DNA from: Pseudozobellia thermophila
Lineage (GTDB): Bacteria > Bacteroidota > Bacteroidia > Flavobacteriales > Flavobacteriaceae
NCBI RefSeq assembly: GCF_900141855.1
Contig: NZ_FQYU01000001.1
Coordinates: 95,402 to 159,401, forward strand
Reading direction: 5' to 3'
Length of the DNA stretch: 64,000 nucleotides
A program made the translations under genes and the position numbers. Below the pieces are notes generated by a model, which was not told the DNA's origin, did not search any database, and saw only the letters and a program-made list of their open reading frames with translations. Positions 6,113 through 56,222 of this stretch are shown here, piece by piece (position 1 is the stretch's first letter; each line of letters starts with the position of its first letter).

Positions 6113-6415
6113 TTACATTTCAATCCAGTTACCATTTTCGTCTGCATACAAAGTACCGGCCGTACCGTCTTCCAATGATACTTCCAACTTGTATTGCTTA
6201 GCTTCGTTTTTATACGCCTTATCGATAGTGGCAGTAGGGTAGTTTTTGGAAACTGCCGCTGTTACGGCTTCCGGCAACTCTTCGGTAGCCACTTCGGAGA
6301 AATCGTCTTGGGCAACTGCCTCAGTTGCGTTCTCTTCCACTGCTTCTACTTCTTCTTGGGCAAATGCAGTTAGACTTCCAAGAGCGAATACTGCGGTGAT
6401 AAATAATTTTTTCAT
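6113..6415 (-). CDS. Small secreted acidic protein, PepSY-like (paralog 2 of 3)
   Basis: Signal peptide MKKLFITAVFALGSLTAFAQ; C-terminal YKLEVSLEDGTAGTLYADENGNWIEM. Confidence 0.6.
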   Translation of the reverse strand: MKKLFITAVFALGSLTAFAQEEVEAVEENATEAVAQDDFSEVATEELPEAVTAAVSKNYPTATIDKAYKNEAKQYKLEVSLEDGTAGTLYADENGNWIEM

Positions 6416-6795
6416 TGTTCTTCTTTTATAGGATTAACTGTGATGGATAGAGAAATAATAATACCAGAATGCGTTTTAAAATATAAAAAACTGATTATCA
6501 ATTATTTAAAAAACAAAGTGAAACCCCAAAGGTGTGTAATAATGGGTATTTGCCCTTTTTTATTGTGTAATTTATACACGGGATGACCAAATAGCGCCCT
6601 CTTGCGTACTCGCATCATGACCCGGGTAAGGGGAAGGCGACTTCACGTACCCAATATAAGGCATTGATCATATATGGCATTGATCGCGCCTATGGAAATT
6701 TTCCCATGGAAACAAAAAAAAGCCCCTTCTGCCAACTATTTGGCAAGGGGCTTTCCTTTATCGTCTAAACCGATAAGATAATTGGGCGAGGAGAA

Positions 6796-7104
6796 TTATT
6801 TCTCGATCCAGTTACCTTCAGCGTCGGCATACAATTCAGCAGTTTCGCCGTCTTCTTTGGCAACTTCCAACTTGTACTGGGCTTCTTCGTTCATGAAAGC
6901 TTTTGAAATGGTAGCTCCTGGGTGGGCAGCTTCCAAAGCCTCGGTAATGGCAGCTGGTACTTCTTCAGCAGCTATTTCATTGAAACCGTCTTGAGCAGCC
7001 TCAACTTGTTCGGTTGCTACTTCTTCTACAGTTGTTTCTTCTTCTTGTGCGAAAGCAGTCATTGTTCCTAGAGACAATACTGCGGCAAACATTAAATTTT
7101 TCAT
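6796..7104 (-). CDS. Small secreted acidic protein, PepSY-like (paralog 3 of 3)
   Basis: Signal peptide MKNLMFAAVLSLGTMTAFAQ; C-terminal YKLEVAKEDGETAELYADAEGNWIEK. Confidence 0.6.
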   Translation of the reverse strand: MKNLMFAAVLSLGTMTAFAQEEETTVEEVATEQVEAAQDGFNEIAAEEVPAAITEALEAAHPGATISKAFMNEEAQYKLEVAKEDGETAELYADAEGNWIEK

Positions 7105-19897: not shown

Positions 19898-20314
19898 ATG
19901 AAAAAATTATTCTTGTTTGCGGCCATTGCCTTTCTATGCCTGAGCTCCTGTAATGAGCAAAAAGAGCCTACGCAAATGCAAAATGTTATGGCGATACATG
20001 ACGAAGTGATGCCCCAAATGGGCAAATTAGGGGATTTGGTAGGTGAACTGAACGCAAAGGAAAACGATAGCACAGAATTGGGCAAAAAGTACATGAAGGC
20101 CAAAAAAGACCTTCAGGCGGCCCACAAGTCGATGATGGATTGGATGCAAAATTTCGGAAACCGGTTCGACCCCGACGAAATATTGAACGGCAAAGAGCTT
20201 TCCGAACAAAAGCAACAGTGGCTCGATGAGGAGGAAGAAAAGGTAAAGGAACTCAAAAGGGAAATCACTGAAAGCATCGCCAACGCGGAAGCCCTCTTGG
20301 AAGGCGACGAATAA
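19898..20314 (+). CDS. Small secreted/lipoprotein, helical, paralog 1 (KSMMDWM motif)
   Basis: Start taken at MKKLFLFAAIAFLCLSSC (lipobox); shares AHDEVM..MGKL...KSMMDWMQ.FG.RFD.DE...GKELSEQKQ.WL.EEE with the next gene. Confidence 0.6.
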   Translation: MKKLFLFAAIAFLCLSSCNEQKEPTQMQNVMAIHDEVMPQMGKLGDLVGELNAKENDSTELGKKYMKAKKDLQAAHKSMMDWMQNFGNRFDPDEILNGKELSEQKQQWLDEEEEKVKELKREITESIANAEALLEGDE

Positions 20315-20406: not shown

Positions 20407-20838
20407 ATGCGCCCAACAAAAAACAGACTTGCCCTCGTTCTATGGGGTGTCCTCTTGCTCGGTTCGACCACGGTTTTTTCGCAAGGGGTCAATAAGAAAA
20501 TGACCAAAATGGAAGAAGTAATGGTCGCCCACGACGAGGTAATGGACAAAATGCCCAAGCTCTCCAAACTGATCAACCAGCTACAGACCCGGGCGAACGC
20601 TTCGTACGAAAAGGAAAAATACGAGAAGGCCATTGCCGATCTTAAAGCGGCCAACAAGTCGATGATGGACTGGATGCACGCCTTCGGAAAGCGTTTCGAC
20701 GCCGACGAGATGATGAAGGGAAAAGAGCTATCGGAGCAGAAGCAAAAATGGCTTCTCGAGGAAGAAAGGAACGTGGAACTGCTGAGGGAGGAAATCGATT
20801 CGGGCATTGCCCGCGCCGAAAAGGTCCTTGGCCTTTAG
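20407..20838 (+). CDS. Small secreted protein, paralog 2 (KSMMDWM motif)
   Basis: Signal peptide MRPTKNRLALVLWGVLLLGSTTVFSQ; collinear similarity to 19898..20314. Confidence 0.6.
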   Translation: MRPTKNRLALVLWGVLLLGSTTVFSQGVNKKMTKMEEVMVAHDEVMDKMPKLSKLINQLQTRANASYEKEKYEKAIADLKAANKSMMDWMHAFGKRFDADEMMKGKELSEQKQKWLLEEERNVELLREEIDSGIARAEKVLGL

Positions 20839-39853: not shown

Positions 39854-41689
39854 TTGAACATCCACAACCCTGATTTAATGAAATTCCCTTTATCCTTCCT
39901 TCTGTACATTACCGCCAGCATTCTTTATGCCCAAACCAACCGTTACGAAATTTCTTTTGGGAATGCCGTACACCACGAAGCGGTCGTAAAAGGCATTTTT
40001 CCAGAATTGAAAACGGACACGGTCGCTTTTCGTATGAGCCGCACTTCACCCGGACGCTACGCCTTGCACGAATTTGCAAAAAACGTATACCATTTTAAGG
40101 CATGGGACAGCAAGGGGAAGGCCCTTGAGGTTTTACGCCCCGACCCCTATCAATGGCAAGTGGTGGGCCACGACGGCTCCATCACCATTAGCTATACCCT
40201 ATTTGCCAATCGCGGGGGAGGAACCTATTCGCAAGTAGACGAAACCCATGCCCATTTGAACATACCCGCCACGTTCATGTATGCCCCCGAACTGAGCGAT
40301 CGAAAAATTGAAGTGGATTTTAAGGTTCGGGAAGATTTAAACTGGAAGGTAGCCACACAATTGCCCCTAGTTTCGGGCACTACCTATTCCGCCCCCGACC
40401 TCTATTATTTTATGGATAGCCCAACGGAGATAAGCGACCATGCCGTTCGTGAATTTAAAGTAGACCATAACGGAAAGCAGCAGAACATACGATTTGTACT
40501 GCACCACAACGGCACGGACGAGGAACTCGACGCCTATTTTGAACAGGTTAAAAAGGTAGTGCTTGCGGAAAAAGAGGTCTATGGCGAACTGCCCGGTTTC
40601 GACTACGGCACCTATACCTTTTTGGCCTGCTATATCCCCAATGCTTCCGGTGACGGTATGGAACACCGCAACTCGACGGTTTTGACCAGTACCCGTAGCC
40701 TTTCGGAAGGAGGAATGCAAGCCAATATCGGTACCGTTTCCCACGAATTCTTCCATGCGTGGAACGTGGAGCGCATCCGCCCGAAATCGTTGGAACCCTT
40801 TAATTTCGAGGAAGCCAATATGAGCGGGGCCCTATGGTTTGCCGAAGGTTTTACCAGTTATTACACCAACCTGATCCTGTGCAGGGCAGGCATTATCTCC
40901 CCGGAAAAATATGTGGAAGGCATTTCAGGCACCTTCAACTATGTATGGAACTCCCCGGCACGCCGATTTTTTAATCCTATCGAGATGAGCTACCAAGCCC
41001 CCTTTGTGGATGCGGCCACTTCGGTAGACCCCGTTAACCGCGAAAACACCTTTATTTCCTATTATTCGTACGGAAGTGTTCTTGGTCTGGCCTTGGATTT
41101 ATCGCTTCGCAAGGAAAAACTGAACCTCGACGATTTTATGAAACTCGTTTGGAAGAAATACGGAAAAACCGAAAAACCGTACACTATAGAGGACCTTCAG
41201 CAGACACTGGCCGAATATGCCGGAAGCGATTTTGCCGAGGTGTTCTTCGGCAAGTACATTTACAAGAGCGAAATGCCCGATTACCCAACACTGTTAAGCC
41301 TTGTGGGGGTAGGGTTGAAGCAAAATCCGCAAGTGCCTTATTTTGGGGCCGCCGTATCCTTAAATGGCGATGGCCAAGGAGAGATCCGGTCGAACCCCAA
41401 GATCGGTACACCGGCCTATGAAGCCGGACTCGACAAAGGCGATATCATTACCGACATCAACGGTAGCGGTTTTCCCGATGGACAACAGTTCGGCGCCTAC
41501 ATCGAAAAACAGAAGGTCGGCGACACCCTTAAGATCGCCTTCGAGCGTTTTGGGGTAGAAAAGCGTTGTACGGTAGTTCTTGGGGCAAATCCCGATTACC
41601 GGCTTTTGTTAATGGAGAAGGAAGGCGGCAAGCCGTCAAAAAAACAATTGCGCCAAAGAAACGACTGGCTTAAAATCCAAGCGCGGTGA
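39854..41689 (+). CDS. M61 family glycyl aminopeptidase with a C-terminal PDZ domain
   Basis: HEFFHAWN zinc motif; PDZ (GLDKGDIITDINGSG); signal peptide. Confidence 0.8.
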   Translation: MNIHNPDLMKFPLSFLLYITASILYAQTNRYEISFGNAVHHEAVVKGIFPELKTDTVAFRMSRTSPGRYALHEFAKNVYHFKAWDSKGKALEVLRPDPYQWQVVGHDGSITISYTLFANRGGGTYSQVDETHAHLNIPATFMYAPELSDRKIEVDFKVREDLNWKVATQLPLVSGTTYSAPDLYYFMDSPTEISDHAVREFKVDHNGKQQNIRFVLHHNGTDEELDAYFEQVKKVVLAEKEVYGELPGFDYGTYTFLACYIPNASGDGMEHRNSTVLTSTRSLSEGGMQANIGTVSHEFFHAWNVERIRPKSLEPFNFEEANMSGALWFAEGFTSYYTNLILCRAGIISPEKYVEGISGTFNYVWNSPARRFFNPIEMSYQAPFVDAATSVDPVNRENTFISYYSYGSVLGLALDLSLRKEKLNLDDFMKLVWKKYGKTEKPYTIEDLQQTLAEYAGSDFAEVFFGKYIYKSEMPDYPTLLSLVGVGLKQNPQVPYFGAAVSLNGDGQGEIRSNPKIGTPAYEAGLDKGDIITDINGSGFPDGQQFGAYIEKQKVGDTLKIAFERFGVEKRCTVVLGANPDYRLLLMEKEGGKPSKKQLRQRNDWLKIQAR

Positions 41690-42222
41690 TACGCTATACC
41701 ACGGCATCGACCGATGACGAACTGAAGCAGATCCTCGCCCTTCAGGAAAGAAACCTGGCCTCTAAGGTGTCGTCCCTCGAAAAGGAAAAAGAAGGCTTTG
41801 TAACCGTAGCGCATACCTTCGACACCTTAAAGGCGATGAACGATACCTGCCCCCATATCATTGCTAAATCGGAGCATGCGGTCATCGGCTATACCCTCTG
41901 TATGCACCCTAGGTTTTCGGATGCCATCGAGGTCTTAAAACCCATGTTCGACGAGATCGAAGGCATTCTTCCCCCCGTGGAAAACTATATCGTTATGGGC
42001 CAGGTCTGCATCGACAAGGCCTTTCGCAAGCAGGGCGTTTTCAGAAAATTGTACGAAACCATGCAGGCCAAGACCAAAAGGGATTTCAGCAGTATTATCA
42101 CCGAGATCGACGCGGGCAACACCCGCTCTTTGCAAGCCCATTATGCTATCGGTTTTAAAGAACTGCACACCTATACATCGGGAGCCCGGGAGTGGAAAAT
42201 CGTGCGTTTTCGATACCTATAA
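41686..42222 (+). CDS. GNAT family N-acetyltransferase
   Basis: Acetyl-CoA-binding motif QGVFRKLYE; start overlaps the M61 stop (ATGA). Confidence 0.75.
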   Translation: MIRYTTASTDDELKQILALQERNLASKVSSLEKEKEGFVTVAHTFDTLKAMNDTCPHIIAKSEHAVIGYTLCMHPRFSDAIEVLKPMFDEIEGILPPVENYIVMGQVCIDKAFRKQGVFRKLYETMQAKTKRDFSSIITEIDAGNTRSLQAHYAIGFKELHTYTSGAREWKIVRFRYL

Positions 42223-42305
42223 AAAACCCGAACACTCCTACATGCAGCTTATTTGACCCGTCGTCCTTACCAATTCCATATTTTTGATTCACCAACTATA
42301 CGCAC

Positions 42306-42517
42306 CTGATTACAAACACAATAAGCCCTAGCCAAAAATCGTTGAAAACACAGTATTTCGTCGAAAAATTTGTAGTATTTTTCTTTGTTAAAAGTATATT
42401 TAACATGCTCTAGCATACAAATTATTGTATCGATTATTGGTTTTCCTTCTTATGTTTTGCACACCTGGTTTTTCCGATAGTATCCACTTTGATTAATTGG
42501 GCAAGGGGAAATGGCTC
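42306..42517 (+). repeat. Direct repeat copy A: a diverged duplicate of the promoter and first ~30 codons of the OMP gene at 48129, truncated by an in-frame TAA
   Basis: Collinear with 48011..48221 (TCGAAA(A/T)TTTGTAGTATTTTTC...CCTTCTTATGT.TTG.ACAC.TGGTTTTTCC...TTGGGCAAGG.GAAATGGCTC); similarity stops exactly after AAATGGCTC. Confidence 0.7.
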
Positions 42518-42587
42518 CCATATAAGCATGGTACTACCAACTACAACAATCAAAAATTCAAGCAACGAAAAAAAGGGAGGTCAAACA

Positions 42588-42695
42588 TTTGAATTAAGCG
42601 ATCGAAAATACAGCCGAGCAAGAAACTATGCGGAAGATCAAACGGTTCTCAAAAACGACAGTGAAGGTTTAACACCAGCATGGGCACAAACGTGA
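42588..42695 (+). pseudogene. C-terminal fragment of an IS200/IS605-family Y1 (RAYT-like) transposase
   Basis: ...YSRARNYAEDQTVLKNDSEGLTPAWAQT* parallels the C-terminus of the 43630..44038 copy (...YSSARNYAEDQTVLKIDSEGLT). Confidence 0.6.
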
Positions 42696-42720
42696 CACCG
42701 GCGCCAGCAGGTGATGGCTC
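42683..42720. repeat. REP-like element / IS200-like right-end motif, family member 1
   Basis: GCACAAACGTGACACCGGCGCCAGCAGGTGATGGCTC; nearly identical to 44882..44919 and related to 44068..44100. Confidence 0.6.
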
Positions 42721-42782
42721 AAATTTGAATCTAGATTTGTAGAAAACCTGTCCTACTAATTGGGGGATGAACACGCTTATGT

Positions 42783-43026
42783 TGGGGAGTTCAAAAAAAG
42801 GATTGACGCCAATACGGGAGAAGTATATAGTACAATGGAAAGTCGTTAGCTTTTAATCAATTTAGTTTGAACAATACTAAGCAAAAAATGAATTTAAAAT
42901 AATCTCTGATGCAGCTAAGAAGAATGGAGATTTGATTGATGGACAATTTAGAGGTGTTACAAAAGATGGTTTTGAAATAGAGGGTTATTTGAAAGATGGA
43001 AAAGTAGATACTTTTTACTTTTTATA
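42783..43026 (+). pseudogene. Degraded fragments of a MORN/YwqK-like repeat protein (immunity-protein-like)
   Basis: Short frames GEFKKRIDANTGEVYS...* and DAAKKNGDLIDGQFRGVTKDGFEIEGYLKDGKVDTFYFL* show the G-x-Y/F-x-x-G repeat signature of YwqK/MORN-type proteins. Confidence 0.3.
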
Positions 43027-43037
43027 GTTAGTTTTAA

Positions 43038-43469
43038 ATGAATTGGTTGATAGAAAATAAGCGGTTTGATATGACTGACCTAATGGTCACCATAGATTTT
43101 GAACCCAAGAACGATCCCTTAAGGTATTTTTTATCAAGTATCGGCGTATTTAACTACCCAAAATTTTTAGACTCTTTTAGTAGTTCTAAAAGTTACTACA
43201 CACATGTCTCATCTCTGAGATTTTACAAAGATTTGGATTGGGAAGATTTAGAAGAATTATCAGAGGTAGGAGGTATTAAAGAGGGTGAGATTACAATATC
43301 TCATGAAGTTTATGGAGAAACTGTTTTAAAAGAAGCAGTTTTTAAGGAATTGATTTTGGACTATTCTCAAGCGCTATTAGAAACCTATAAAAATGACTCC
43401 TCTGCTCCTAAATTATGGAGCAACGAAATGACTGATGAGATAACCAAATTGAAGAATAAGCCGAGTTAA
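43038..43469 (+). CDS. Hypothetical cytoplasmic protein (immunity-protein-like; no signal peptide; low GC)
   Basis: 143-aa ORF; no recognisable motif. Confidence 0.5.
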   Translation: MNWLIENKRFDMTDLMVTIDFEPKNDPLRYFLSSIGVFNYPKFLDSFSSSKSYYTHVSSLRFYKDLDWEDLEELSEVGGIKEGEITISHEVYGETVLKEAVFKELILDYSQALLETYKNDSSAPKLWSNEMTDEITKLKNKPS

Positions 43470-43549
43470 GTGTAACAGCTTGGCTTTTTACATCAAATTA
43501 ATTTTAGCAGCCTTGATAAAGTGGTCAATGGTAGTAATCAGAAACCCCG

Positions 43550-43576
43550 CCTGCACGAGCGTGACGCTCGTGCAGG
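43550..43576. repeat. 27-bp perfect palindrome (left-end hairpin of an IS200/IS605-like element)
   Basis: CCTGCACGAGCG-TGA-CGCTCGTGCAGG, about 55 bp upstream of the tnpA pseudogene. Confidence 0.7.
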
Positions 43577-43629
43577 TCAGAGTAAGAAGATCCTGAGCCA
43601 AGCACTAAACAATTAAAAGTAAGATAGTA

Positions 43630-44038
43630 ATGAGCAGAAAACACAAATTCAATAACCCTACCGCAGCCTACTTCGTAAGCTTCGCCACCGTATATTGGAT
43701 CGATGTGTTTACCAGACAGGCCTATTTCTCGATATTGGAAAATGCGGTCGGTTACTGTCGAGCGGAAAAAGGAATGGATATTACGGATGATGGAAAGCGC
43801 AGCCAAAAAGAAAAGGAATATAACCAAAAGGCAATTCTGGCAACATAACAACAAACCTATTGAGCTATGGAGTAACAAAGTCATAAAACAGAAGATCGAT
43901 TATATACACAACAACCCGGTAGAAGCAGGGTTCGTAACAAATGCCATTGATTGGAAATACAGCAGTGCAAGAAACTATGCGGAAGATCAAACAGTTCTCA
44001 AAATTGACAGTGAAGGTTTAACACTAGGTATGCTATGA
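43630..44038 (+). pseudogene. tnpA: IS200/IS605-family Y1 transposase (REP-associated tyrosine transposase-like), frameshifted
   Basis: N-terminal part MSRKHKFNNPTAAYFVSFATVYWIDVFTRQAYF (frame of 43630..43848) continues in another frame (43703..44038) as ...IDYIHNNPVEAGFVTNAIDWKYSSARNY; a Y1 transposase interrupted by a frameshift. Confidence 0.7.
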
Positions 44039-44067
44039 AAATGCGACCGCTTAATACTAGGTTGAAT

Positions 44068-44100
44068 GGGCATAAGCGTGACGCTTGTGCCAGCAGGGGA
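44068..44100. repeat. Right-end hairpin / REP-like motif, family member 2
   Basis: GGGCATAAGCGTGACGCTTGTGCCAGCAGGGGA, which contains the palindrome AAGCG-TGA-CGCTT. Confidence 0.55.
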
Positions 44101-44205
44101 GAGAAATCAACTATCCAGGAGGCGGGCATCAATATGAGTTTATAAACGATTGGAGTATTGATAATTTCACAGATTATTTAAACTTAATAGAAAAAAAATA
44201 ATCAA

Positions 44206-44754
44206 ATGAGAATAAAAAATCTATCCCTTATTTATCGGGATTTAATACATGAAGTAAATTTAGATTTAGGTTTATATATTGAATCCATTAATGTTAATAA
44301 AGTTGAGAGTAGTGTTCTAAGAAATTATAACCATGGTATTTCATGGAAGTATCAAACCGTAGAAAAAGATCTTTTGGAAATAAAATTGATGGAGAAAGAG
44401 AAAAGAATCTTGGCATATCCCTCCCCTGACATGAAATACATGGTCGTTTTGTTCGATAGAAACTCGCAATACCATCCACATCCGAACAACCTTGTGGTAT
44501 TTTACGCCAATGGGGAAGAAAAACAAGTGGTCAAGGTCCCAGAATTAATTTCAGATCAAGCCGTAAAAAACACCGATAACCCTTTTGGGGTAGATAAAGA
44601 AGGAAGTTTTGAAAATATTTGGTGGTATAAAAAAGAAAACGAAAAAAAGATGGTAGTAGATATCCATTTTGCATGGGAAAATACAGAAACAAGGGAGTTT
44701 GACCCCGAAACAGGGCAATTTGGCAATTTAATCAGAGTTTCCGGTAGATTTTAG
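44206..44754 (+). CDS. Hypothetical protein (182 aa; no signal peptide; low GC)
   Basis: ORF only. Confidence 0.5.
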   Translation: MRIKNLSLIYRDLIHEVNLDLGLYIESINVNKVESSVLRNYNHGISWKYQTVEKDLLEIKLMEKEKRILAYPSPDMKYMVVLFDRNSQYHPHPNNLVVFYANGEEKQVVKVPELISDQAVKNTDNPFGVDKEGSFENIWWYKKENEKKMVVDIHFAWENTETREFDPETGQFGNLIRVSGRF

Positions 44755-44881
44755 GACTTACTCCCGCTAGCGCGAACATTTGAACCAAGCTTGCCGAAGT
44801 ATCACGGCGGTACCCACTACAGCGATAATACCCAGTAGGCTATAAAAGCAAAACGAATATGGGTTTGCAACAAATTTTTAA

Positions 44882-44919
44882 CCGCACAAACGTGACACCG
44901 GCACTAGCAGATGATGCTC
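44882..44919. repeat. Solo REP-like motif, family member 3
   Basis: CCGCACAAACGTGACACCGGCACTAGCAGATGATGCTC, about 90% identical to 42683..42720. Confidence 0.55.
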
Positions 44920-44970
44920 ACAATTAAATCTTTATAAGGTGGATTTAAGTAAAATGGATTGGATTACTAA

Positions 44971-45477
44971 ATGGAAATATTGATACAAATGAACATTACC
45001 GCAAAAGAATTTAGGACGATTAAACCTTTCGAATCATACACGGAGAATGATGTACAAGGAGGATTGACAAAATCTGTATTGGATATCTATTTATATATAT
45101 ATGATAATTTCTCGGTAATGAACTTTGTCGCTGATTATAACAAACAAAATCCTTTAGAAGTATTTGGCAATACTCCAAAAGAAAAAAGACTAGTACAATT
45201 AAATAATTTAAATAAAAGTATAGAAAAAGGCAACGACCCGGTTTCGATTGGAAAGTATTCCTTATTGGATAACAACCTAATAGAAATGAAATGGAATTAC
45301 TATTACGGAGAAGATATTGAATTGATCTTTAAAGGGGAAATACTCTTAAACGGTGATGCCCTAAAAGGAACCTTCTATAAGAATGGGGAAGTCGACATAC
45401 CCTCTAGGGTTTACTACAACATCGACAAACCCTTGCCCGACCCTTTGATCCCGGAGGATGATGAAGATATGGCTTAA
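44971..45477 (+). CDS. Hypothetical protein (168 aa)
   Basis: ORF only. Confidence 0.5.
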   Translation: MEILIQMNITAKEFRTIKPFESYTENDVQGGLTKSVLDIYLYIYDNFSVMNFVADYNKQNPLEVFGNTPKEKRLVQLNNLNKSIEKGNDPVSIGKYSLLDNNLIEMKWNYYYGEDIELIFKGEILLNGDALKGTFYKNGEVDIPSRVYYNIDKPLPDPLIPEDDEDMA

Positions 45478-45685
45478 TAAAAGGAAAACAAAACACTATT
45501 CCCTGCAGGGGTTTAGTGCAGGAAAAAATGGCGTATTGGGTGCTCCCGAATGGCATTTGCCTAAAAACATTGAAATGGATAAGGGTGCAGAACTGTGGGA
45601 AATTTTAAACGATGAATCGGAAATCTTAAGAGGTCGGATAGTCGATATATATGATTCTAAAACCTTCATAACAATAATCAATTAA
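45458..45685 (+). CDS. Hypothetical small protein (75 aa)
   Basis: ORF overlapping the previous stop by 20 bp. Confidence 0.35.
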   Translation: MMKIWLNKRKTKHYSLQGFSAGKNGVLGAPEWHLPKNIEMDKGAELWEILNDESEILRGRIVDIYDSKTFITIIN

Positions 45686-45687
45686 AA

Positions 45688-46140
45688 ATGAAGTATAGAT
45701 TTGGCTCATATGTAGTTTACAAAGAAATGGATTGTTATTTAATCTCCAGAAAAGAATGGAGAATAGTATCCAAGGATATTAAGAGTCAAAAACTAGGGTT
45801 TAAAGCCTATGAGGCTGGTTTCCCTTATTATAAAAAAATCGATAAGACCGACATACAATCAGGTTATTTTGTTCGTACAAAAGCAAAATACAAAGATTTC
45901 ACCTTTGAATTATTTCAAAATGAGGCATTGAAAAATGATTATAAAGTACGATTAAAATTGAACAACCTTGACTTTGATGCCTACGATTATTTTGGGTTTC
46001 CTTACCGAAATGATGATGCCAGTATTGAAGTCAATGAGGAAGAATTGGAAGAAATTTGGGAAGAGCGCAAACCCCTAGCTCGGTTCCCGTTCAAAACAGA
46101 AAAAATAAAGTTTATAAAAAAAGAAGGGGAGTTTTTGTAA
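45688..46140 (+). CDS. Hypothetical protein (150 aa)
   Basis: ORF only. Confidence 0.5.
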   Translation: MKYRFGSYVVYKEMDCYLISRKEWRIVSKDIKSQKLGFKAYEAGFPYYKKIDKTDIQSGYFVRTKAKYKDFTFELFQNEALKNDYKVRLKLNNLDFDAYDYFGFPYRNDDASIEVNEEELEEIWEERKPLARFPFKTEKIKFIKKEGEFL

Positions 46141-46287
46141 TGTCCTCATCAAGGTTTTTCATATTTAATACTAGTATATCAACATTGCAACCCTGTACGT
46201 TTAAAATGTATGGCCCGAATTGGTCGTTAGTTCCAAAAAAATCAGCGCTAAGGAATACAAGGCTAAGAGCCTGTCTAAAATGGCCTT

Positions 46288-46554
46288 ATGACTAAAAACA
46301 TGAAATCCAAAAGAAACATAGAACCCATAATAACTTACTCTATTGCCATAATTTTAATCGGGTATCTTCTTCTGAATTACGGCTCGTTTCACATAGATGA
46401 AGACTACCCTTCATCATGGAAGGCACAATTGATACACATAGTCTCTAAATTTCTTTTAAATGATACAGCCGGGCGCATGGTAGGCCAAATAGTCCTTTCG
46501 CTATTGGGTATCGTTTGCTGCTTTAAAATTTACAAAGTCATAAAAGCTAAATAA
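46288..46554 (+). CDS. Small two-TM membrane protein, paralog 1
   Basis: IEPIITYSIAIILIGYLL...LSLLGIVCCFKIYKVIKAK; paralogous to the next ORF. Confidence 0.45.
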   Translation: MTKNMKSKRNIEPIITYSIAIILIGYLLLNYGSFHIDEDYPSSWKAQLIHIVSKFLLNDTAGRMVGQIVLSLLGIVCCFKIYKVIKAK

Positions 46555-46564
46555 TTGCCTAGGC

Positions 46565-46816
46565 ATGAGACCGAAAAGAGATATAGAACCGATCATAGCT
46601 TACTCTATAGCAATAATGTTAATAGTGTATTTGCTTGCCAGCTATGACACCTTTTCCGTTGATGAAAACCGCCCTCCTCATGGAAAATGGATTGTTGTTA
46701 TATATAAGTTTCTTTTAAATCATGAGTTTGGCAGTATTATCGCCAAAGGAGTCCTATTGTTGTTGGGCATCTATTGTTGCCGTCAACTATACAACGCTTT
46801 TAAAACTAAACAATAG
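46565..46816 (+). CDS. Small two-TM membrane protein, paralog 2
   Basis: IEPIIAYSIAIMLIVYLL...LLLLGIYCCRQLYNAFKTKQ. Confidence 0.45.
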   Translation: MRPKRDIEPIIAYSIAIMLIVYLLASYDTFSVDENRPPHGKWIVVIYKFLLNHEFGSIIAKGVLLLLGIYCCRQLYNAFKTKQ

Positions 46817-46951
46817 TCTGATATGGTGTTCCCATAATAACCAGAGAGGCTCCTGATTTTTGAGATAATTTAGGAGGAGCTATGTAGTAGTCCCTTCCAA
46901 TGGGATGAAATTAGAATCATTTAATATGGTAAGATTTAAAAAGTAATTTTT

Positions 46952-47206
46952 ATGAACTGGCATAACGCATTAAAAGATATATATCGAAAACTTGAAGCTT
47001 CTGGATATAAAGGAATCAAGGAGGATATTCATGAAGGTCAATTGAGTGGTGGAACTGGTGGGGAATTTTTTTCAATAGTTCTAACTAAATTAATAGAAAT
47101 CAAAAAAAATCAACCCATTGTCTATTGCTTGCTAAAAAAAGAAGTAGATGAATTTATTGCTTATGCTAAATCAATTAATTACTTGAACTCTGATTTTAAG
47201 ATTTAA
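46952..47206 (+). CDS. Hypothetical small protein (84 aa)
   Basis: ORF only. Confidence 0.4.
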   Translation: MNWHNALKDIYRKLEASGYKGIKEDIHEGQLSGGTGGEFFSIVLTKLIEIKKNQPIVYCLLKKEVDEFIAYAKSINYLNSDFKI

Positions 47207-47329
47207 TTTTTATGAAAGAGTGCATCCCTGCGGTGAAAAATTAGCAATAGGAAAAATTGGCCTTCGGCAGCGCAGGCGTCACAGCTAAAACACTGTCCCC
47301 GCTTGTGATTAATACTTTTAATAATATCA

Positions 47330-47731
47330 ATGGGCTATCTAAAAGACTATAATAGAAATAAAGACGAAATTCTTCATTCTTTTCAAGACTTAATCGAAAA
47401 GGAAGATGATTCATTTTCAGAACTTGGGTTTAATTTTTCAAAATGTGGGTTTGGTGATGCAAGAAGTCAAGACGACCATATAGAATTTATCTGGAAAAAA
47501 GAAAAAAGAGAACTCAGTGTTTGCTTTTGGATCCCTTTTTGGAAGAACTACAAAATTGACGAGAACTTTATGGTAACCTATAGTCTAACTAATGATATGG
47601 GTAAAAAGCATCCATTAATTTCTAAGGCTATTGAATTCAATAAATTACGCGGGGAAAATATTAGAGCCAAGATAAGCACACTATTCAAACATATTGCGGA
47701 AATCATCAATTCAAAAAATATAAATTTATAA
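47330..47731 (+). CDS. Hypothetical protein (133 aa)
   Basis: ORF only. Confidence 0.5.
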   Translation: MGYLKDYNRNKDEILHSFQDLIEKEDDSFSELGFNFSKCGFGDARSQDDHIEFIWKKEKRELSVCFWIPFWKNYKIDENFMVTYSLTNDMGKKHPLISKAIEFNKLRGENIRAKISTLFKHIAEIINSKNINL

Positions 47732-47736
47732 TAGTT

Positions 47737-47811
47737 CCCTCACGCTCGTGCCCGCAACAGACAATACCCCCCACTTCGGCAGGCTCGGCGCAAGGCTTCG
47801 AAGGGCGGGGA
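47737..47811. repeat. Hairpin-rich repeat element, copy 1
   Basis: TCACGCTCGTGCC (half of the IS200-like LE palindrome) followed by CCCCCCACTTCGGCAGGCTCGGCGCAAGGCTTCGAAGGGCGGGG; the same roughly 45-bp imperfect hairpin recurs at 56043..56089. Confidence 0.6.
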
Positions 47812-48010
47812 ATGTTCCCGGCCTTAGGGCCAGTTCGCAGGTATGCATTTGGAATTGTCTTCGGTACTGGCCACACGGTCAAGCAAGTCGGCCCGGGAGT
47901 GAAAACCACGCGTATTAAATACTTACAACAAAATAAAACTTCCTACACAAATATTAATTTTCTTGTAGTCCTTACAACGCCAATATTCACAATATATAAC
48001 ACGTACTTCA

Positions 48011-48221
48011 CTCATTACAAACACAATAACTTCATTTAAAAAAATCTAAGATTCATTACATTTCATCGAAATTTTTGTAGTATTTTTCGCTTTTTAACTT
48101 AAATTTAACTAGTTAAGAATACGAATCATTGTACCGATTATTAGTTCCCCTTCTTATGTGTTGTACACTTGGTTTTTCCCAAAGTATCAACTTTGACCAA
48201 TTGGGCAAGGAGAAATGGCTC
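48011..48221 (+). repeat. Direct repeat copy B: the functional promoter and 5' end of the OMP gene
   Basis: See copy A at 42306..42517. Confidence 0.7.
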
Positions 48222-50588
48222 AGATACAACGGCGGTGTGTCGGCCAATGCCGTCTATTACGACGGTACCGCCAACCGACAGGAGCTCACCTATTACCTCA
48301 CCGGAAGCTTAAACTTCAACATTGCCGGGGTGTACAACGTTCCGCTATCGTTTACCTATTCGAACCAAGAGTTCAATTTTCCCAACCCCTTTAACTTTAA
48401 TCGCTTGAGCCTGCATCCATCCTACAAATGGGCTACCGCACATATCGGCGACGTAAGCATGACCTTTTCGCCCTACACCCTCGCCGGTCACCAATTTACG
48501 GGCGGCGGTTTTGACCTGAATCCGGAAGGGAAATTTCAAATAAGCGCCATGTACGGCCACTTTTTAAAGGCCACCGAATACAACGAGGAACACCCCGAGG
48601 CCCTTACCGCCTACAAACGCATGGGCTATGGCATAAAGACCGCCTATGATTTCGATTTTATGAAACTGGGACTCATTCTCTTTAAGGCCCATGACGAAGA
48701 GAACTCATTGGAAAATCCGTTTCCCGTGGAGCTCGGACTCTCACCCAAAGACAATGCCGTGCTCTCCTTCGAATCGGAATTCCGGCTTTTCGAAAAGGCC
48801 AGTATACACATAGAATACGCCATATCGGGCGTTACCGAGGACACGAGGCCGACCGAAGCCCCTTCGTCTCCCGGGCTGCTGTCCTTCCTTCTAAAAGAAA
48901 ACATAAGCACCCAATACTACAAGGCCCTGAACGCATCGTTAGACTACCCCGCGGGCAACGGAACCTTGGGACTAGGGTATGAACGCATCGACCCCGAGTA
49001 CAAGACCCTGGGTGCCTATTATTTCAACAACGACCTCGAAAACATCACGGTAAACGCGAGCCAGTCGGTTTTCGACAACAAACTCAACCTCAGCGTAAAC
49101 GCCGGCCTGCAGCGCGATAACCTGAACAAGGCCAAATCATCGGACCAACAGCGCATCGTAAGTGCCATCAACGCCAATTACACGGCCTCCGACCGTTTGG
49201 GCTTCAATGCATCCTACAGCAACTTTCAGTCCTACACCAACATTCGCGACCAGTTCGATTACATCAACCAAGTAGGGGCCTACGACAATATAGACACGCT
49301 GAACTATCGCCAGATTTCACAAAATGCCAACTTGGGCATCAACTACATCCTCAAAAAAACAGAGACCAAACAGCACAGCACCAACCTTAACCTGGTCTAT
49401 CAAAACAGCACCAACCAACAGGAAGGCGAAACCATAGAAGGCGGGGAAAACTCCTTCTACAACGGTATGGCGGGCTATACCCTGGGCTACCCCAAACAGG
49501 CCCTCAACATCTCCTTGGCCGCCAACGTTTCGTACAATACCGTGGCCGAGGACGACAACATGACCCTTGGCCCCACCCTATCCATCGGCAAGCAGTTTTT
49601 CGACAAGCAACTGCGCACCAACTTTTCAAGTTCGTACAATACGAGCTACGCCAACGGGGAACAGCAGAACAACATCCTTAACTTTAGGTTGGGCAGTAAC
49701 TATACGCTGTACAAAAAACACAACCTCAGCCTTAATTTTCTGATGCTTTTCAGGAATTCGGAACTCAATACGGGGCGCGACCTGACCATTACCTTCGGCT
49801 ACAGCTATGCCTTTGACAACTTTAAGCTCGACCTTGATTCCCATAGGCGCAGTCCCAACGAACGCGACCCCCGCAACAGGGAAAGCACGTTGAGCTTCCG
49901 CTACCGCAATGTATCGTACAGCGGCACGATACCCCAACTGAACGAGCAGCTGACCAACGTGTACGAGAGTCCGCAGTTCGCCGACATCCCCCAATTCAAG
50001 AAAGACGAGCTCAAAATCCTTTTGGCCACCGTCAAAGAGCAAAAGCGGGAGGAAAAATACAAGGAGCAGGCCCTTATTTTTCTTGAGGAGCTCTACGCCT
50101 TCGACGATTTTAAAACCATTTACGACGAGGCCCTGTACAACGTGGTCATGGCCATCAAAGACGACATGAAGAAAGTGGACATGGCCCTGGAAAAACTCTT
50201 CGTCGCCAAAAAACTGGAAGCCGACGAGCACCCCCTGAACGGAAAGGGTCCCGAAAACTATACGGAAAAGGACAAAACCCTGGTGCCGGAGTACGAAGCC
50301 CTCCTAAAAGAGCGGGAGACCCGTTTGCGAAAATTGGTAGGACATAGGTGGATGGAAACCCAGTTCGCCGCCTTTACCTCCAAGGAAAAGATAGCGAAAG
50401 GAATAGGCTTTTTACTGGAGTTCAAGAAAAAACAGGCCCTAAAATCCTTTGAGCTTTATGAAAAAACCGAAAACCAGGAAAAACTGGAATACTACCTCGA
50501 AAACGAAATCATCGATTTCTACTATAAGAAGTCGCTGAAAACGGTAAACCCCGAACTGTTCGAACTGAGGTATATCAATAAATTGTAG
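48129..50588 (+). CDS. Large outer-membrane beta-barrel-like protein (~570 aa, aromatic/Asn/Ser/Thr/Tyr-rich) with a ~230-aa C-terminal helical Lys/Glu-rich domain; unknown family
   Basis: TTG start with signal peptide (M)YRLLVPLLMCCTLGFSQS; alternating beta-strand character with frequent aromatic-Asn/Ser residues; C-terminal ...KEQKREEKYKEQALIFLEELYAFDDFKTIYDEALYNVVMAIKDDMKK is helical. Confidence 0.7.
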   Translation: MYRLLVPLLMCCTLGFSQSINFDQLGKEKWLRYNGGVSANAVYYDGTANRQELTYYLTGSLNFNIAGVYNVPLSFTYSNQEFNFPNPFNFNRLSLHPSYKWATAHIGDVSMTFSPYTLAGHQFTGGGFDLNPEGKFQISAMYGHFLKATEYNEEHPEALTAYKRMGYGIKTAYDFDFMKLGLILFKAHDEENSLENPFPVELGLSPKDNAVLSFESEFRLFEKASIHIEYAISGVTEDTRPTEAPSSPGLLSFLLKENISTQYYKALNASLDYPAGNGTLGLGYERIDPEYKTLGAYYFNNDLENITVNASQSVFDNKLNLSVNAGLQRDNLNKAKSSDQQRIVSAINANYTASDRLGFNASYSNFQSYTNIRDQFDYINQVGAYDNIDTLNYRQISQNANLGINYILKKTETKQHSTNLNLVYQNSTNQQEGETIEGGENSFYNGMAGYTLGYPKQALNISLAANVSYNTVAEDDNMTLGPTLSIGKQFFDKQLRTNFSSSYNTSYANGEQQNNILNFRLGSNYTLYKKHNLSLNFLMLFRNSELNTGRDLTITFGYSYAFDNFKLDLDSHRRSPNERDPRNRESTLSFRYRNVSYSGTIPQLNEQLTNVYESPQFADIPQFKKDELKILLATVKEQKREEKYKEQALIFLEELYAFDDFKTIYDEALYNVVMAIKDDMKKVDMALEKLFVAKKLEADEHPLNGKGPENYTEKDKTLVPEYEALLKERETRLRKLVGHRWMETQFAAFTSKEKIAKGIGFLLEFKKKQALKSFELYEKTENQEKLEYYLENEIIDFYYKKSLKTVNPELFELRYINKL

Positions 50589-50836
50589 ACAATGAACAAT
50601 TAGCAATTAGCAATAAACAATGAGCAATGAACAGTTAACAGTAGGCAGTGGGCAGTGGGCAGTGAACAGTTAGCAATTAGCAATTAGCAATGAACAATTA
50701 ACAGTGAACAGTTGGCAGTGGGCAGTGGACAATTGACAATTAACAGTGAACAGTTAGCAATGAGCAATGAACAGTAGGCAGTTGGCTGTGGGCAGTGGGC
50801 AGTGAACAGTTGGCAGTGGGCAGTTGGCAGCTATTA
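50589..50836. repeat. Tract of about 35 tandem degenerate heptanucleotide repeats (unit RCARTKR, e.g. GCAGTGG / GCAATTA / ACAGTGA)
   Basis: acaatga acaatta gcaatta gcaataa acaatga gcaatga acagtta acagtag gcagtgg gcagtgg gcagtga ... gcagttg gcagcta; starts on the base after the OMP stop codon and runs into the 5' end of the next long ORF. Confidence 0.9.
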
Positions 50837-50869
50837 GTTCTAAGAAAATTAAAAAATATCGGACCGTTG

Positions 50870-53800
50870 ATGACCAACAGCGTTATAAAACATATGAAAA
50901 ACAACGATTTAGCATTGCAGCATCCCTTTACAAACCCGGTAAATGGCCGTGGCGCATGGCGCAAGACCTTCGGTAAGGGTCAGGCTGTGCTTTTATACAT
51001 GCTTCTTTTCTTCCTATGCTTCCTGGGTAGCCTCGCGGTAAACGCCCAGTCCTTTCCCGTTCAGGTGATTCCTCAGGTAACCCCGCCGGCGCCGATCTAT
51101 TTCTCCGATTATGCCGATGCGAGTACCTTGGGCAGTCCGCTCCGCGTGCAGATCATCTTGAACGATTTTGAGATCGCCAACCGCGAGATACGCCTGCGTA
51201 CCTATTTTGAGGGCGGGGGTATCAGCTTTCATAGTAACGATGTGGTGCTAGGTGCCGAAAAACTCTATTTGGAAGGCGGCGTGCCCTTGGTACTCACCAA
51301 CGTACAATTGGCCCCGTACTTTAGGTTCGAGAACATTAGCGGAATATCGCCCAACGTATACGGAAAAGCCATTCCCGAAGGCGCCTACTCCTTTTGTTTT
51401 GAGGTGTACGATGTACTGACGGGCAACCGCCTGTCGCAAAAAAGCTGTGCCACCAGCGTTGTCTTTCAAAACGAACCGCCCTTTCTGGTCGCACCGAGAA
51501 ACAAGTCCAACCTAGCCGAAACCAATCCGCAGAACATCGTCTTCCAATGGACGCCACGCCACATCAACGTGAGCAATGTGGAATACGAACTGAGCATCGT
51601 GGAGATCTGGGATACCCAGGTAGACCCGCAACAGGCCTTTTTAAGCTCTCCGCCCGTTTTTCAGGTCACGACCACCGCCACCACCTACGTATACGGTCCG
51701 GCCGACCCGCTTTTTCTTTCGGGAAAAAACTACGCCTGGCGCGTACAGGCCAAGGCCAAGCAAGGGGTCGAGGAAATCGGACTCTTCAAAAACCAGGGCT
51801 ATAGTGAAATCTATTCCTTCAGCTATGCCGGCACCTGCGACCTGCCCATCGGTATCAACCACGAAGTAAAGGGCAGTACCAATGCCAATATCTTTTGGGA
51901 CGATTTCGCTACCGATGTGCCCGAATATACGGTGCGGTACCGCCAAAAGAACATAGAGGGAGCGGAGTGGTTTATGAACAAGACCACTTCGAACCAAACC
52001 ACCCTGTGGGACCTTAAGGCAGGCACCACCTACGAATACCAGGTGCAAAAACAATGCTCGGTGACCGGAAGCGATTGGAGCATGGCCAAGGAGTTTACCA
52101 CCTTTATCGCCGACGACGAAGCCAGTGTCTACGACTGTGGCATAACGCCCGATTTTGATGTTTCGAACAAAGAGCCCCTGCCCAGCATCTCCTCCGGTGA
52201 AAAGTTTATGGCGGGCGACTTCCCCATAAATATTTTAAAGGTAAGCGGTAAAAATGGCCGTTTTACGGGTAAAGGATACGTGACCATCCCTTATTTGAAC
52301 AGCATTCGAGTGGGCGTAGAGTTTACCAATGTGCTTATCAATACCGACAAGAAATTGGCCGAAGGTACCGTAGTCACCACCTACGACCCGAGTTTAAAGA
52401 ACATCTTGGACATAAACGAATCAGTCGATACGGTAGAAGATGCCGTTGATGCCGTGGGGGAATTTTTTGAAGGAGATAACGACCTAGATGAAATTCGCGT
52501 CAACTGGGCCCTTAGATCTAAGAAAGATATAAAAATAAAAGGTGGTAAAGTCGTGATCACCAACCCCAATACGGGGGCAACCAAATCGGAACCCTTAGGC
52601 GACGATATGGTGATTACCGACAGTGAAGGGAAAACCTATTACGTAGATGCGGAAGGAAAAATAACCGAAGGGGGATCACTTGCTACTGGCGGGGCCATAA
52701 GCCCGGATACCGTAGAAGGCGTCTCGAACAACGGCCAAATAGAATCCTTAACGGCAGAAGGTGTTCTGGTCACCTTTAACGAAGCGGGTACGTATGCCAT
52801 GGATATAATGCCCAAGGGCGAAATAGGAAAGCTCAAGGACGAGTACACAGTTATAAAGGATGCGGAAGGCAACGACTATGTGCTTACCCACCATGCCGTA
52901 AAGAATAGGGCAAGCACCAAAATAAAGGCCAAAATCGACATTAAAAACGATGCCTACGATGTATCGGATGTCATCTTCAAGACCAAGCATGGGGATAGTA
53001 TCCCCACGACCTTCAAGGGCAATCAGGCCACCTTGACCTTGAAAGGCAGGTTTACCTTCGAAAACGAGGTAATCTATGCGGTCGTACCCGACAAGGACGA
53101 CAGTACAAAACAACTTACGGCCGGGGCGTTTACCCTTTGGCATCTATCCGAACGCACCGTAAAAGTGGCCCTGGTTTCCGTTAACGGCGCCTCTTTGGGT
53201 AATATCGAATCCAACGTTTCCGACATCTTCAAAAAAGCGGTGGCCCGTATTGAGTTCGGCGAGAGCCTTTCCCTTTCCGTCACCAAGGACGAACTAGGAA
53301 GCAACCAAAAATTGGATGTAGGCGAAAGCGCATGGGCCGCGGCCTATAACGAGGAACAGAAGATGCTCGTAAACAAGGTGAAGCAATTGCCCAACTATAA
53401 GACCGACACCTATTATGTCTTGGTCTTCAACGACATAGAACCTTCAGAATCCATCGGTGGATTTATGCCCCTACAGCGGCAAATGGGCTTTGTATTTGGC
53501 GGTGACCCAGATGATGGTGAAGATAAGAACGGGGACAAGAGCAAGACCTTGGCCCACGAAATAGGCCATGGTATTTTCGCCCTTCAGCACCCCTTCGCTG
53601 AATATGACATGCCTGAAAATCAAACCGATTGGCTCATGGATTATGGCAGTGGAGACCAATTGCCCCATACCCATTGGGCCCAGATCCATGACCCGGCCCT
53701 TAAATTCTACATTTTTCAAGATGAGGAGGATGGTTTATTAATACAAAACGGAATCACTCCATATCTTAACATTCATGAAAAAAATTGGGATAATTATTGT

Positions 53801-55960: not shown

Positions 55961-56089
55961 GCAAGCATCACGCTCGTACCATGTTCAAAACACCCCTGTA
56001 AAGTAGTAGGGTACTACTTTACCGTCCCCCCAAGGGGACAATAACCCCTACTTCGGCAGGCTCGGCGCAAGGCTTCGAAGGGCGGGGGA
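55961..56089. repeat. Hairpin-rich repeat element, copy 2 (longer; nested palindromes)
   Basis: TCACGCTCGTACC ... GTAAAGTAGTA-GGG-TACTACTTTAC (11-bp arms) ... GTCCCC-CCCAA-GGGGAC ... CCCCTACTTCGGCAGGCTCGGCGCAAGGCTTCGAAGGGCGGGGG; the 3' part is nearly identical to 47767..47811. Confidence 0.6.
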
Positions 56090-56222
56090 TGTAGGATCGA
56101 ACCGATGCAGATAGAAGGGAAAAATAGAAAGGTGAATAAAACAAAAAGAAGAAAAAATAAAAAATGATTGAGTCTCCCTTAGTTCCCTGGGGAGTACATA
56201 AACACGAAAAATTTCACGTAGT

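Follow-up and report, generated by a model that had tools for sequence, protein, structure and literature searches.

The stretch of DNA under study (64,000 nucleotides of the Pseudozobellia thermophila contig NZ_FQYU01000001.1, hereafter the window) carries an operon that encodes an outer membrane protein (OMP), a toxin of 1705 aa and proteins of 1670 aa and 687 aa, and that belongs to the polymorphic-toxin operons of Flavobacteriaceae (Pseudozobellia/Zobellia). An AT-rich island of small open reading frames (ORFs) lies ahead of all these genes, between two diverged direct repeats. The island was compared with 65 related loci from species-representative genomes and 3 more from close relatives (loci are labelled L001 and so on, W being this window). 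The island is not an unrelated or foreign mobile element, but a store of leftover immunity genes, toxin stubs and dead transposase copies. Throughout the fetched loci the gene order OMP, large fn3-containing protein (1705 aa in the window) and 1670-aa protein is kept. An M61 peptidase gene and a GNAT acetyltransferase gene precede the operon in 17 related loci, with biotin-synthesis genes further upstream in two of the loci (L067 and L068). In the window the GNAT gene is intact (41686..42222, plus strand, 178 aa, Pfam Acetyltransf_1), and its 3' codons form the left end of the upstream repeat.

When the window was compared with itself by blastn, positions 42184-42525 matched positions 47891-48229 at 71.6% identity over 352 columns (E 4.6e-39), far beyond chance, and a third copy was not found anywhere in the 64 kb. 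An earlier reading made from the letters alone (the sequence-only reading) had described the two stretches as collinear; this holds, and the repeat is longer than it had noted, as the left end lies about 120 bp further out and takes in the final ~13 GNAT codons. The best sub-blocks are 42412-42525 / 48116-48229 (83%) and 42355-42404 / 48060-48109 (80%). The similarity is not of low complexity; the best blocks coincide with those that are kept ahead of the orthologous OMP gene in ~20 genomes from several genera. The unconstrained part of the two copies, which is not conserved across genera, is only ~60-65% identical. Both copies also have in common a non-conserved intergenic stretch and a C-terminal extension of the GNAT protein (RFRYL / RIKYL) that is absent from L047 and L055.

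Each copy runs from the last ~13 GNAT codons, through an intergenic region and a promoter core that different genera have in common, into the OMP gene, of which it holds the first ~36 codons. Copy A (42184..42536, plus strand) comprises the GNAT 3' end, a variable intergenic part (42223-42350), the promoter core (~42353-42408), a 5' untranslated region (UTR) and an OMP pseudo-start (TTG 42425). Copy B (47891..48240, plus strand) comprises a GNAT remnant, a variable intergenic part, the working promoter core (~48058-48113), a 5' UTR and the OMP start (TTG 48129). The GNAT stop codon (TAA, 42220-42222) is mutated to CAA in copy B. The decayed GNAT remnant may extend over 47816..47928 (plus strand), but it is secure at 47891-47928 only (~13 codons, within the 352-column match) and doubtful further left, where protein comparison over the whole stretch gave only E 0.06; the stretch is conserved at 87-95% in L001, L066 and L068. 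Translation of copy A gives LYRLLVFLLMFCTPGFSDSIHFD*LGKGKWLPYKHG, and the working OMP start of copy B reads LYRLLVPLLMCCTLGFSQSINFDQLGKEKWLRYNGG. The in-frame TAA that had been noticed in copy A was located at 42494-42496; it is private to the P. thermophila window, the orthologous copy A of L068 having CAA. Similarity had also been said to end exactly after AAATGGCTC. This is correct for the nucleotide comparison within the window, but at the protein level and against orthologous OMP genes the homology of copy A reaches ~codon 36 (~42536), about 4 codons further (KWLPYKHG vs KWLRYNGG). About 25 bp after this OMP stub, a C-terminal fragment of a transposase gene is fused to it, at a joint called J1 that is common to W and L068. 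Copy B is the functional 5' end of the OMP gene and copy A a decaying duplicate, as had been proposed, and the repeats are not target-site duplications.

The OMP gene is the first of the toxin operon (48129..50588, plus strand) and encodes 819 aa when read from TTG. Its product is 100% identical to the P. thermophila protein P0001, annotated from ATG 48156 (810 aa). The TTG start at 48129 and the signal peptide that it adds (MYRLLVPLLMCCTLGFSQ) are conserved as coding sequence across genera; by this comparison the start is probably TTG 48129 rather than the annotated ATG. A look-up of the exact 819-aa sequence gave no entry, probably because the form stored in databases is the 810-aa one, as for P0001. 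The toxin gene (50795..55912, plus strand, 1705 aa as an ORF) is conserved in its N-terminal part, which contains fn3, and has a HEIGH motif at aa 921; its C-terminus is variable and AT-rich from ~aa 980, the point at which the GC content falls from 0.48-0.51 (N-terminal) to 0.31-0.36. In tblastn searches of the 65 loci, N-terminal residues ~80-560 or ~80-1060 were conserved, and for the C-terminal part the matches were limited to two weak ones, in L037 and L044 (25-27% identity). The final 20 residues differ in nearly every genome.

C-terminal types that recur each have their own type of small ORF downstream, overlapping or separated by a gap of a few bases. Toxins ending in ...MDW(S/I)(K/T)(N)WKY were found in 4 genomes (L001, L015, L031, L065), each followed by a homologue of the island ORF 44971-45477; those ending in ...KITLKLID in 3 genomes, each followed by a 187-aa gene; and those ending in ...APWT(N/K) in 2 genomes, each followed by a gene of 113-117 aa. 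Among 32 homologous C-termini, Pfam toxin domains were recognised (Toxin-deaminase three times, 1.5e-38; ART; Tox-SHH; AHH; HNH; Endonuclea_NS_2), and the genes directly after homologous toxins include members of the Pfam immunity families Imm49, Imm3, SUKH-1/5/6 and NADAR. Judged from these sequence features, the family of the 1705-aa protein is a polymorphic toxin family. A sequence search of the PDB with the toxin and the OMP returned fn3 matches or nothing.

The island holds a toxin stub followed by an immunity gene. The stub (44936..44983, plus strand) consists of 15 C-terminal codons and a stop, KVDLSKMDWITKWKY*, and shares 13 nt with the start of the gene that follows, like the intact pair in L001, with which it was aligned by blastn (L001 18260-18802). 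The next gene (44971..45477, plus strand, 168 aa) is an intact orphan immunity gene; it matches L001 18286-18789, directly after the L001 toxin, and its homologues likewise lie directly after the matching toxin C-terminus in L015, L031 and L065. The full toxin of the ...MDWxxWKY type is present in these four loci and absent from the locus of the window, and a search with the ...MDWSKWKY toxin domain gave 7 short fragments only, which tell nothing of domain architecture. A half-site resembling a repetitive extragenic palindrome (REP) precedes the cassette (44884..44916, plus strand), in an arrangement that is the same in L068 and L066.

All other ORFs of the island lie on the same strand, and the ratio of non-synonymous to synonymous substitution (dN/dS) of island ORFs, the 168-aa gene included, is 0.11-0.55. 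Those regarded as candidate orphan immunity genes are 43038..43469 (143 aa, AT-rich, GC 0.333), 44206..44754 (182 aa, dN/dS 0.35, in a cassette found 97% identical at another array position in L068), and six small ORFs of GC 0.29-0.36 within 45458..47731 (45458-45685, 45688-46140, 46288-46554, 46565-46816, 46952-47206 and 47330-47731), of which 46288-46554 and 46565-46816 encode paralogous membrane proteins. No family match was obtained for island ORFs in Pfam or NCBIfam. Homologues of 45688-46140 occur in arrays downstream of the toxin in L013 and L003, and those of 46288/46565 after a short toxin gene in L036. The segment 42881..43030 (plus strand), ending in ...GYLKDGKVDTFYFL*, is a possible second toxin C-terminal stub; the suggestion is a weak one, made from its position directly before the 143-aa ORF, as no homologue was found.

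Transposase remnants are interspersed with these genes. The fragment at J1, which the sequence-only reading had rightly called IS200-like, is made of the C-terminal ~37 codons of a REP-associated tyrosine transposase (RAYT; 42561..42695, plus strand); by tblastn it matches RAYT genes in L022, L003, L050 and others, and it is 90% identical to 43949-44027. The latter lies within a shortened RAYT pseudogene (43630..44038, plus strand) that is read in two frames (43630..43848 and 43703..44038) and is 67-88% identical by tblastn to intact 188-aa genes of L002, L003, L011, L018 and others. The RAYT copies of the window are thus one frameshifted pseudogene and one fragment. A degenerate REP-like half-site with the motif GCACRAGCGTGAC (repeat family D7) follows the fragment at 42684..42716 (plus strand). 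The pseudogene has a perfect REP hairpin upstream (CCTGCACGAGCGTGACGCTCGTGCAGG, 43549..43577, fold -25.3 kcal/mol, z = -6.1) and another, matching the motif, downstream (44069..44090, z = -2.9). Further matches to the motif are found on the minus strand at the right end of the array (47739..47751) and in the 3' flank of the toxin gene (55967..55979).

The right end of the island is marked by a 56-bp copy of the toxin gene 3' flank (D8_A, 47760..47815, plus strand), 95% identical to its counterpart in native position upstream of the 1670-aa gene (D8_B, 56037..56092, plus strand). Folding of the two copies gave z = +0.4 and -0.6, without significant structure, and D8 is therefore not a REP or a terminator. 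The right end of D8_A is a joint, called J2, with the GNAT remnant. The island had been described as AT-rich, and this was borne out by its GC content of 0.352 (42541-47759), against 0.49-0.50 in the flanking GNAT and OMP genes; the value equals that of the variable C-terminus of the toxin. The island is toxin-locus material, as all of its recognisable components have relatives downstream of the toxin gene in other genomes.

Island-free relatives, which the sequence-only reading had proposed for comparison, define the empty site: in Zobellia amurskyensis, Z. barbeyronii, Z. laminariae and one Maribacter genome (L047, L055, L067, L009) the GNAT and OMP genes are separated by 210-245 bp. Islands of 5 to more than 8 kb occupy this site in two Z. 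uliginosa strains (L001, L068) and in Zobellia sp. OII3 (L066). J2 is common to W and these three loci. In L001 and L066 the left joint is another one, copy A being reduced to the promoter core and cut just after TATATTTAACATGC. Apart from a 50-bp remnant in L001, the duplication of the promoter and OMP start was not found in 25 other loci checked. Additional markers of the toxin 3' flank lie inside the islands of the relatives: L066 has D8 with the 100 bp that follow it, L068 has D8 twice, and L001 has the first 29 codons of the 1670-aa gene together with the region upstream of them. These extra markers suggest repeated rounds. The order of cassettes is permuted between W and L068, and the cassettes that the two have in common reach 97% identity, the flanks 90.6-94.3%. 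The relatives thus offer a natural series for the growth of an array, from the empty site through an island of one round to islands of several rounds with extra 3'-flank markers.

In the reading that we prefer, with a probability of roughly 0.7, the island is an array of orphan immunity genes belonging to the polymorphic-toxin operon next to it, left by a second copy of the module that was stacked beside the first and whose upstream OMP and toxin genes were deleted. The module copy (GNAT 3' end, promoter, OMP, toxin, array and 3' flank) would have been placed in tandem by one of two routes, tandem duplication or the integration, through recombination, of a piece of DNA that came from the locus. 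J2 would then be the novel joint of the duplication, linking the toxin 3' flank to the GNAT 3' end; circularisation followed by reintegration would fit it equally well, and a short microhomology, GCGGG, may be discerned at this joint. J1 would mark a deletion that took out the upstream OMP and toxin genes, reached as far as a RAYT copy in the array and spared the promoter and the immunity array. Duplication of the module followed by the upstream deletion would make the repeats 42184-42536 and 47891-48240 two copies of the 5' boundary of the module. The result would be, from left to right, promoter copy A with the OMP stub and the old array, D8 with the GNAT remnant and promoter copy B, and finally the functional operon. 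Later rounds of a similar kind, together with exchange between strains, would have reshuffled the array, and its genes would protect against the toxins of neighbours that the host cell itself no longer makes. Of the two origins named by the sequence-only reading, Campbell-type integration or an old duplication, the topology is indeed demanded by the structure; what did not hold is an independent circular or integrative element that invaded the site.

Several observations weigh against this reading. The D8 copies are 95% identical and the boundary copies 72%, so that the two repeat pairs date differently; a single event with neutral decay is insufficient, and one has to invoke gene conversion, a diverged donor or more than one event. 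Among the loci, none was seen to carry two complete modules in tandem; there were only stubs, and a partial toxin duplication in L034. Most island ORFs are without a family, and positional homologues were obtained only for 44971, 45458, 45688 and 46288/46565. Copy A is changed at 3/26 constrained columns of the promoter and UTR, including the TTAACTTA box, and at 9/56 coding columns, and no significant preference for keeping the constrained columns was seen in copy A when this was tested (p = 0.32). Finally, the C-terminus of the window's own toxin has no toxin domain recognisable with Pfam and no adjacent immunity gene. Between its stop (55912) and the next gene (56223) there is no ORF, as in L042, L044 and L049 and unlike most homologues checked. 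When its cognate immunity gene was sought, the sole database relative of the 725-residue C-terminus was P0128 (36% identity), and the 192-aa membrane protein that follows P0128 has no homologue in the window.

The mismatch of dates leaves one serious rival to duplication in place, namely import: circular or linear DNA derived from the same locus in a diverged relative would have recombined into the resident promoter/OMP region, by Campbell-type or homology-facilitated illegitimate recombination. The donor would already have held the GNAT 3' end, promoter, OMP start, array and D8, the array would be foreign, and the divergence of the boundary copies would be that of donor and recipient. This would account for boundary copies that are just 72% identical when J2 is common to genomes with flanks 90-94% identical, and it agrees with the swapping of cassettes between lineages, seen in the 97% identity of those shared by W and L068. 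An immunity gene in the island of L001 likewise has 92.6% protein identity to the cognate gene of Maribacter aquimaris (L015), the OMPs being ~75% identical, and a similar mechanism was proposed for type VI secretion system (T6SS) arrays of Vibrio cholerae (PMC5361080). Import nonetheless still requires two illegitimate joints, J1 and J2, formed in the donor; D8 copies that are 95% identical do not resemble a donor ~30% diverged in the intergenic region; and both flanks are equally diverged from the outgroup L067 (73-76%), without discontinuity. We hold it to be possible, on the unlikely side. Dating of the duplication by a clock was abandoned because identities between close relatives are very uneven from segment to segment (copy A variable intergenic part 98-99%, copy B 83-88%, D8 84-96%); together with the mismatch between D8 and boundary copies, this unevenness points to gene conversion or mosaic recombination.

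Decidedly improbable is an island built by the RAYT/REP system itself, in which the HUH transposase would have moved REP-bounded toxin-immunity cassettes, via single-stranded circles, from the site after the toxin gene to the site in front of the OMP gene. Both truncation points, those of the OMP stub (42536-42561) and of the toxin stub (44884-44936), do have RAYT remnants or REP sites beside them, two intact RAYT copies alternate with cassettes in L002 and L003, matches to the REP motif are limited to the locus (window and 1.3 Mb of related loci), and the permuted cassette order of W and L068 could be ascribed to such movement. Against this, the REP hairpins flank the RAYT genes (~40-70 bp away) and not the cassettes, all RAYT copies of the window are pseudogenes, and the permutation could also come from homologous recombination between repeated RAYT/REP sequences. 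The duplicated boundary and D8 are without REP at their ends, and peel-and-paste transposition does not explain them.

Very improbable, and largely refuted, is the insertion of an unrelated genomic island or integrative element by site-specific recombination, in which the repeats would serve as att sites. It would suit the AT-rich composition with direct repeats at both ends, and also the varied contents of the GNAT-OMP gap in other genera. Yet no integrase or integrase-type recombinase was found among the inspected ORFs of 39.8-51 kb, where the scanned flanking genes are the M61 peptidase and GNAT genes. Repeats of ~350 bp at 72% identity are not att-like, and the content of the island and its right-end marker derive from the toxin locus. 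The sequence-only reading of the island as an invading element is contradicted by the same evidence. The weakest proposal, that there was no duplication and that a promoter/leader motif present twice is similar by functional conservation alone, draws on the best-matching blocks being those conserved across genera, and is refuted by the collinearity of the copies through their non-conserved stretch, the GNAT extension and the decaying OMP coding start of copy A.

In other genera the gap between the GNAT and OMP genes holds unrelated genes and not immunity arrays: HipBA-like and other toxin-antitoxin pairs, GAF sensors and peptidases (L011/L018 8156-9698; L013 5496-6148 and 8968-9527; L002-L004 ~7.1-9.7 kb). 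These variable contents make the site upstream of the OMP promoter a general hotspot of gene insertion.

Bacteroidetes promoters have a -7 element, TAnnTTTG. Upstream of the OMP gene, the blocks TTCATCGAAAA and TTAACTTAnnTTTAA are conserved in about 20 genomes, and we take TTAACTTAnnTTTAA to resemble this element. Copy A retains TTCATCGAAAA and the TATATTTAAC part of TTAACTTAnnTTTAA. Its promoter core is its only portion kept in 4/4 island-bearing genomes, in two junction contexts, and co-oriented small ORFs always follow; copy A as a whole deviates from the cross-genus consensus at 12/82 constrained columns, against 1/82 for copy B. A scan for sigma-70 promoters and terminators gave counts at the level of shuffled sequence, its consensus being inappropriate for Bacteroidetes promoters. 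With Rfam, scanned over 41.5-56.5 kb at E <= 1, a known RNA was not found for the conserved leader, the one match being a viral motif at chance level. On this pattern of conservation it is plausible, at about even odds, that the promoter of copy A is active and transcribes the co-oriented immunity genes. If so, it would be a simple means to keep old immunity genes expressed after the toxin has been lost.

The identity of the RAYT family was established on the intact homologue of L003, from Pseudozobellia sp. WGM2 (Pfam Y1_Tnp, 1.5e-8; NCBIfam REP_Tyr_transpos, 82.6 bits for a cutoff of 80). In about 10 genomes (Arenibacter, Euzebyella, Pseudozobellia and others), RAYT homologues lie between the toxin and the 1670-aa gene (17.5-22.5 kb in the locus); the same REP motif stands on both sides of them in every case, and none lies upstream of the OMP gene. 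The motif GCACRAGCGTGAC has 8 matches in the 64-kb window, for 1.2 expected, all within this locus, and all its matches in the related loci (~1.3 Mb) are at 17-21 kb, next to RAYT. Inverted REP hairpins around RAYT are also present in L003, L011, L014, L018, L020, L022 and L050. RAYT genes with REP hairpins were observed to recur at ~17.5-22.5 kb in L002, L003, L011, L014, L018, L020, L022, L036 and L050, with two copies in L002 and L003. RAYTs usually accompany dispersed REP populations, and a motif confined to one locus is unusual; dispersed REP/REPIN copies were not seen in the sequence searched, which consisted of the window and the related loci, that is, of partial genomes. As in known RAYT/REP systems (PMC5581495), the transposase gene is flanked by inverted REP hairpins; the difference here is that several copies or remnants stand in one locus and that the position in the array is conserved across several genera.

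This conserved presence of RAYT and REP inside arrays is a lead on a possible role of RAYTs. An improbable idea is that of a two-site cassette system, with an expressed site after the conserved part of the toxin and a promoter-driven storage array upstream, between which RAYT/REP would reshuffle toxin and immunity cassettes. If true, an HUH single-strand transposase would be the basis of an integron-like device for gene capture, and RAYTs would have a function.

Some other features of the operon were recorded. The space from the OMP stop to the toxin gene is filled by a degenerate tandem array of heptamers (50590-50830, ~240 bp, CAATTAG / CAGTGAA / CAGTGGG, ~34 copies), and similar arrays follow the OMP stop in L003, L015, L016, L017 and L037; the array could be a regulatory or variable-length spacer. 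In L066 (12484-17564) and L068 (12501-17545) the toxin gene ends at ~1060 residues, after the conserved part, and is followed by three ORFs (~170, 234 and 207-216 aa), which reflects either a split-toxin arrangement or loss of the toxin. In L034 (2843-4300 and 7920-10619), from an uncultured Cellulophaga, a partial second copy of the toxin N-terminus (residues ~4-491, 68%) lies between the OMP gene and the full toxin gene, and is an independent case of duplication inside the toxin operon. Elsewhere in the window, three tandem repeats ~690-720 bp apart (5445-7104, conserved stretches 74-86%) each end in ...TTTTTTCAT, which is an ATG start read in reverse complement; they look like three paralogues in a row on the minus strand, and are unrelated to the island. 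A 152-bp direct repeat at 76% identity was also found (20085-20236 / 20615-20766, 530 bp apart).

The toxin system is probably related to the TANFOR class of Bacteroidetes polymorphic toxins defined by Jana, Salomon and Bosis 2020 (PMC7073777). The class is described as large secreted proteins with a conserved N-terminal region, variable C-terminal toxins and downstream immunity genes, as in the present family. An fn3 / Pur_ac_phosph_N-like domain is placed at residues ~300-390 in that class; it is found at 361-436 in the toxin of the window, whose architecture matches proteins listed in the supplement. The Maribacter polysiphoniae locus (L037) carries a BaCT toxin from the same supplementary list. 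The TANFOR family TIGR02542 gave no NCBIfam match, either with the whole 1705-aa protein (E <= 0.01) or with residues 61-400 (E <= 10), in a library that may not hold TIGR02542. The word 'orphan' does not occur in PMC7073777. The portion of it used for comparison mentions a transposase among the downstream genes (legend of Figure 1), and does not describe the conserved OMP, 1670-aa and 687-aa neighbours, upstream arrays or an association with RAYT.

The orphan arrays of the V. cholerae T6SS (Kirchberger et al. 2017, PMC5361080) and of Rhs and contact-dependent inhibition (CDI) systems (PMC3150448) resemble the island in that immunity genes are kept when the toxin is lost and are adjoined by toxin 3' stubs, in that cassettes resemble the cognate pairs of other strains, indicating horizontal exchange, and in that illegitimate joints and homologous recombination were invoked. 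In contrast to these, the array of the window lies upstream of the whole operon (42537-47759, the OMP gene starting at 48129) and not in the toxin 3' region. It is headed by a duplicated operon promoter and first-gene start, and the duplicated unit is the whole module (OMP and toxin), not merely the toxin 3' end. Delivery would rely on a Flavobacteriaceae OMP with an fn3-containing toxin and not on T6SS, Rhs or CdiA, and RAYT/REP units are embedded in the array, unlike in known orphan arrays. The acquired interbacterial defence (AID) and recombinase-associated AID (rAID) clusters of gut Bacteroidales (Ross et al. 2019, bioRxiv 10.1101/471110) are likewise orphan immunity arrays with toxin remnants that protect against the toxins of other strains, with a composition unlike that of the host genome and horizontal exchange of arrays. 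The island differs from rAID clusters in that its array is part of the toxin operon's own locus and that, among the ORFs of 39.8-51 kb, the sole genes resembling a recombinase are HUH-type RAYT pseudogenes. The rAID clusters reportedly carry a tyrosine recombinase of integrase type, of which there is none among those ORFs, and are said to be located on mobile elements.

Functionally, the locus is an orphan immunity array as in the T6SS, Rhs, CDI and AID systems; it differs from them in its position, its duplicated promoter and first-gene start, its toxin system and its RAYT/REP units. Orphan immunity arrays are thought to shape who lives beside whom in dense bacterial communities, and have so far been described mostly for T6SS, Rhs and CDI in Proteobacteria and for gut Bacteroidales. 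The same logic is now found in marine Flavobacteriaceae, for a poorly studied toxin system.

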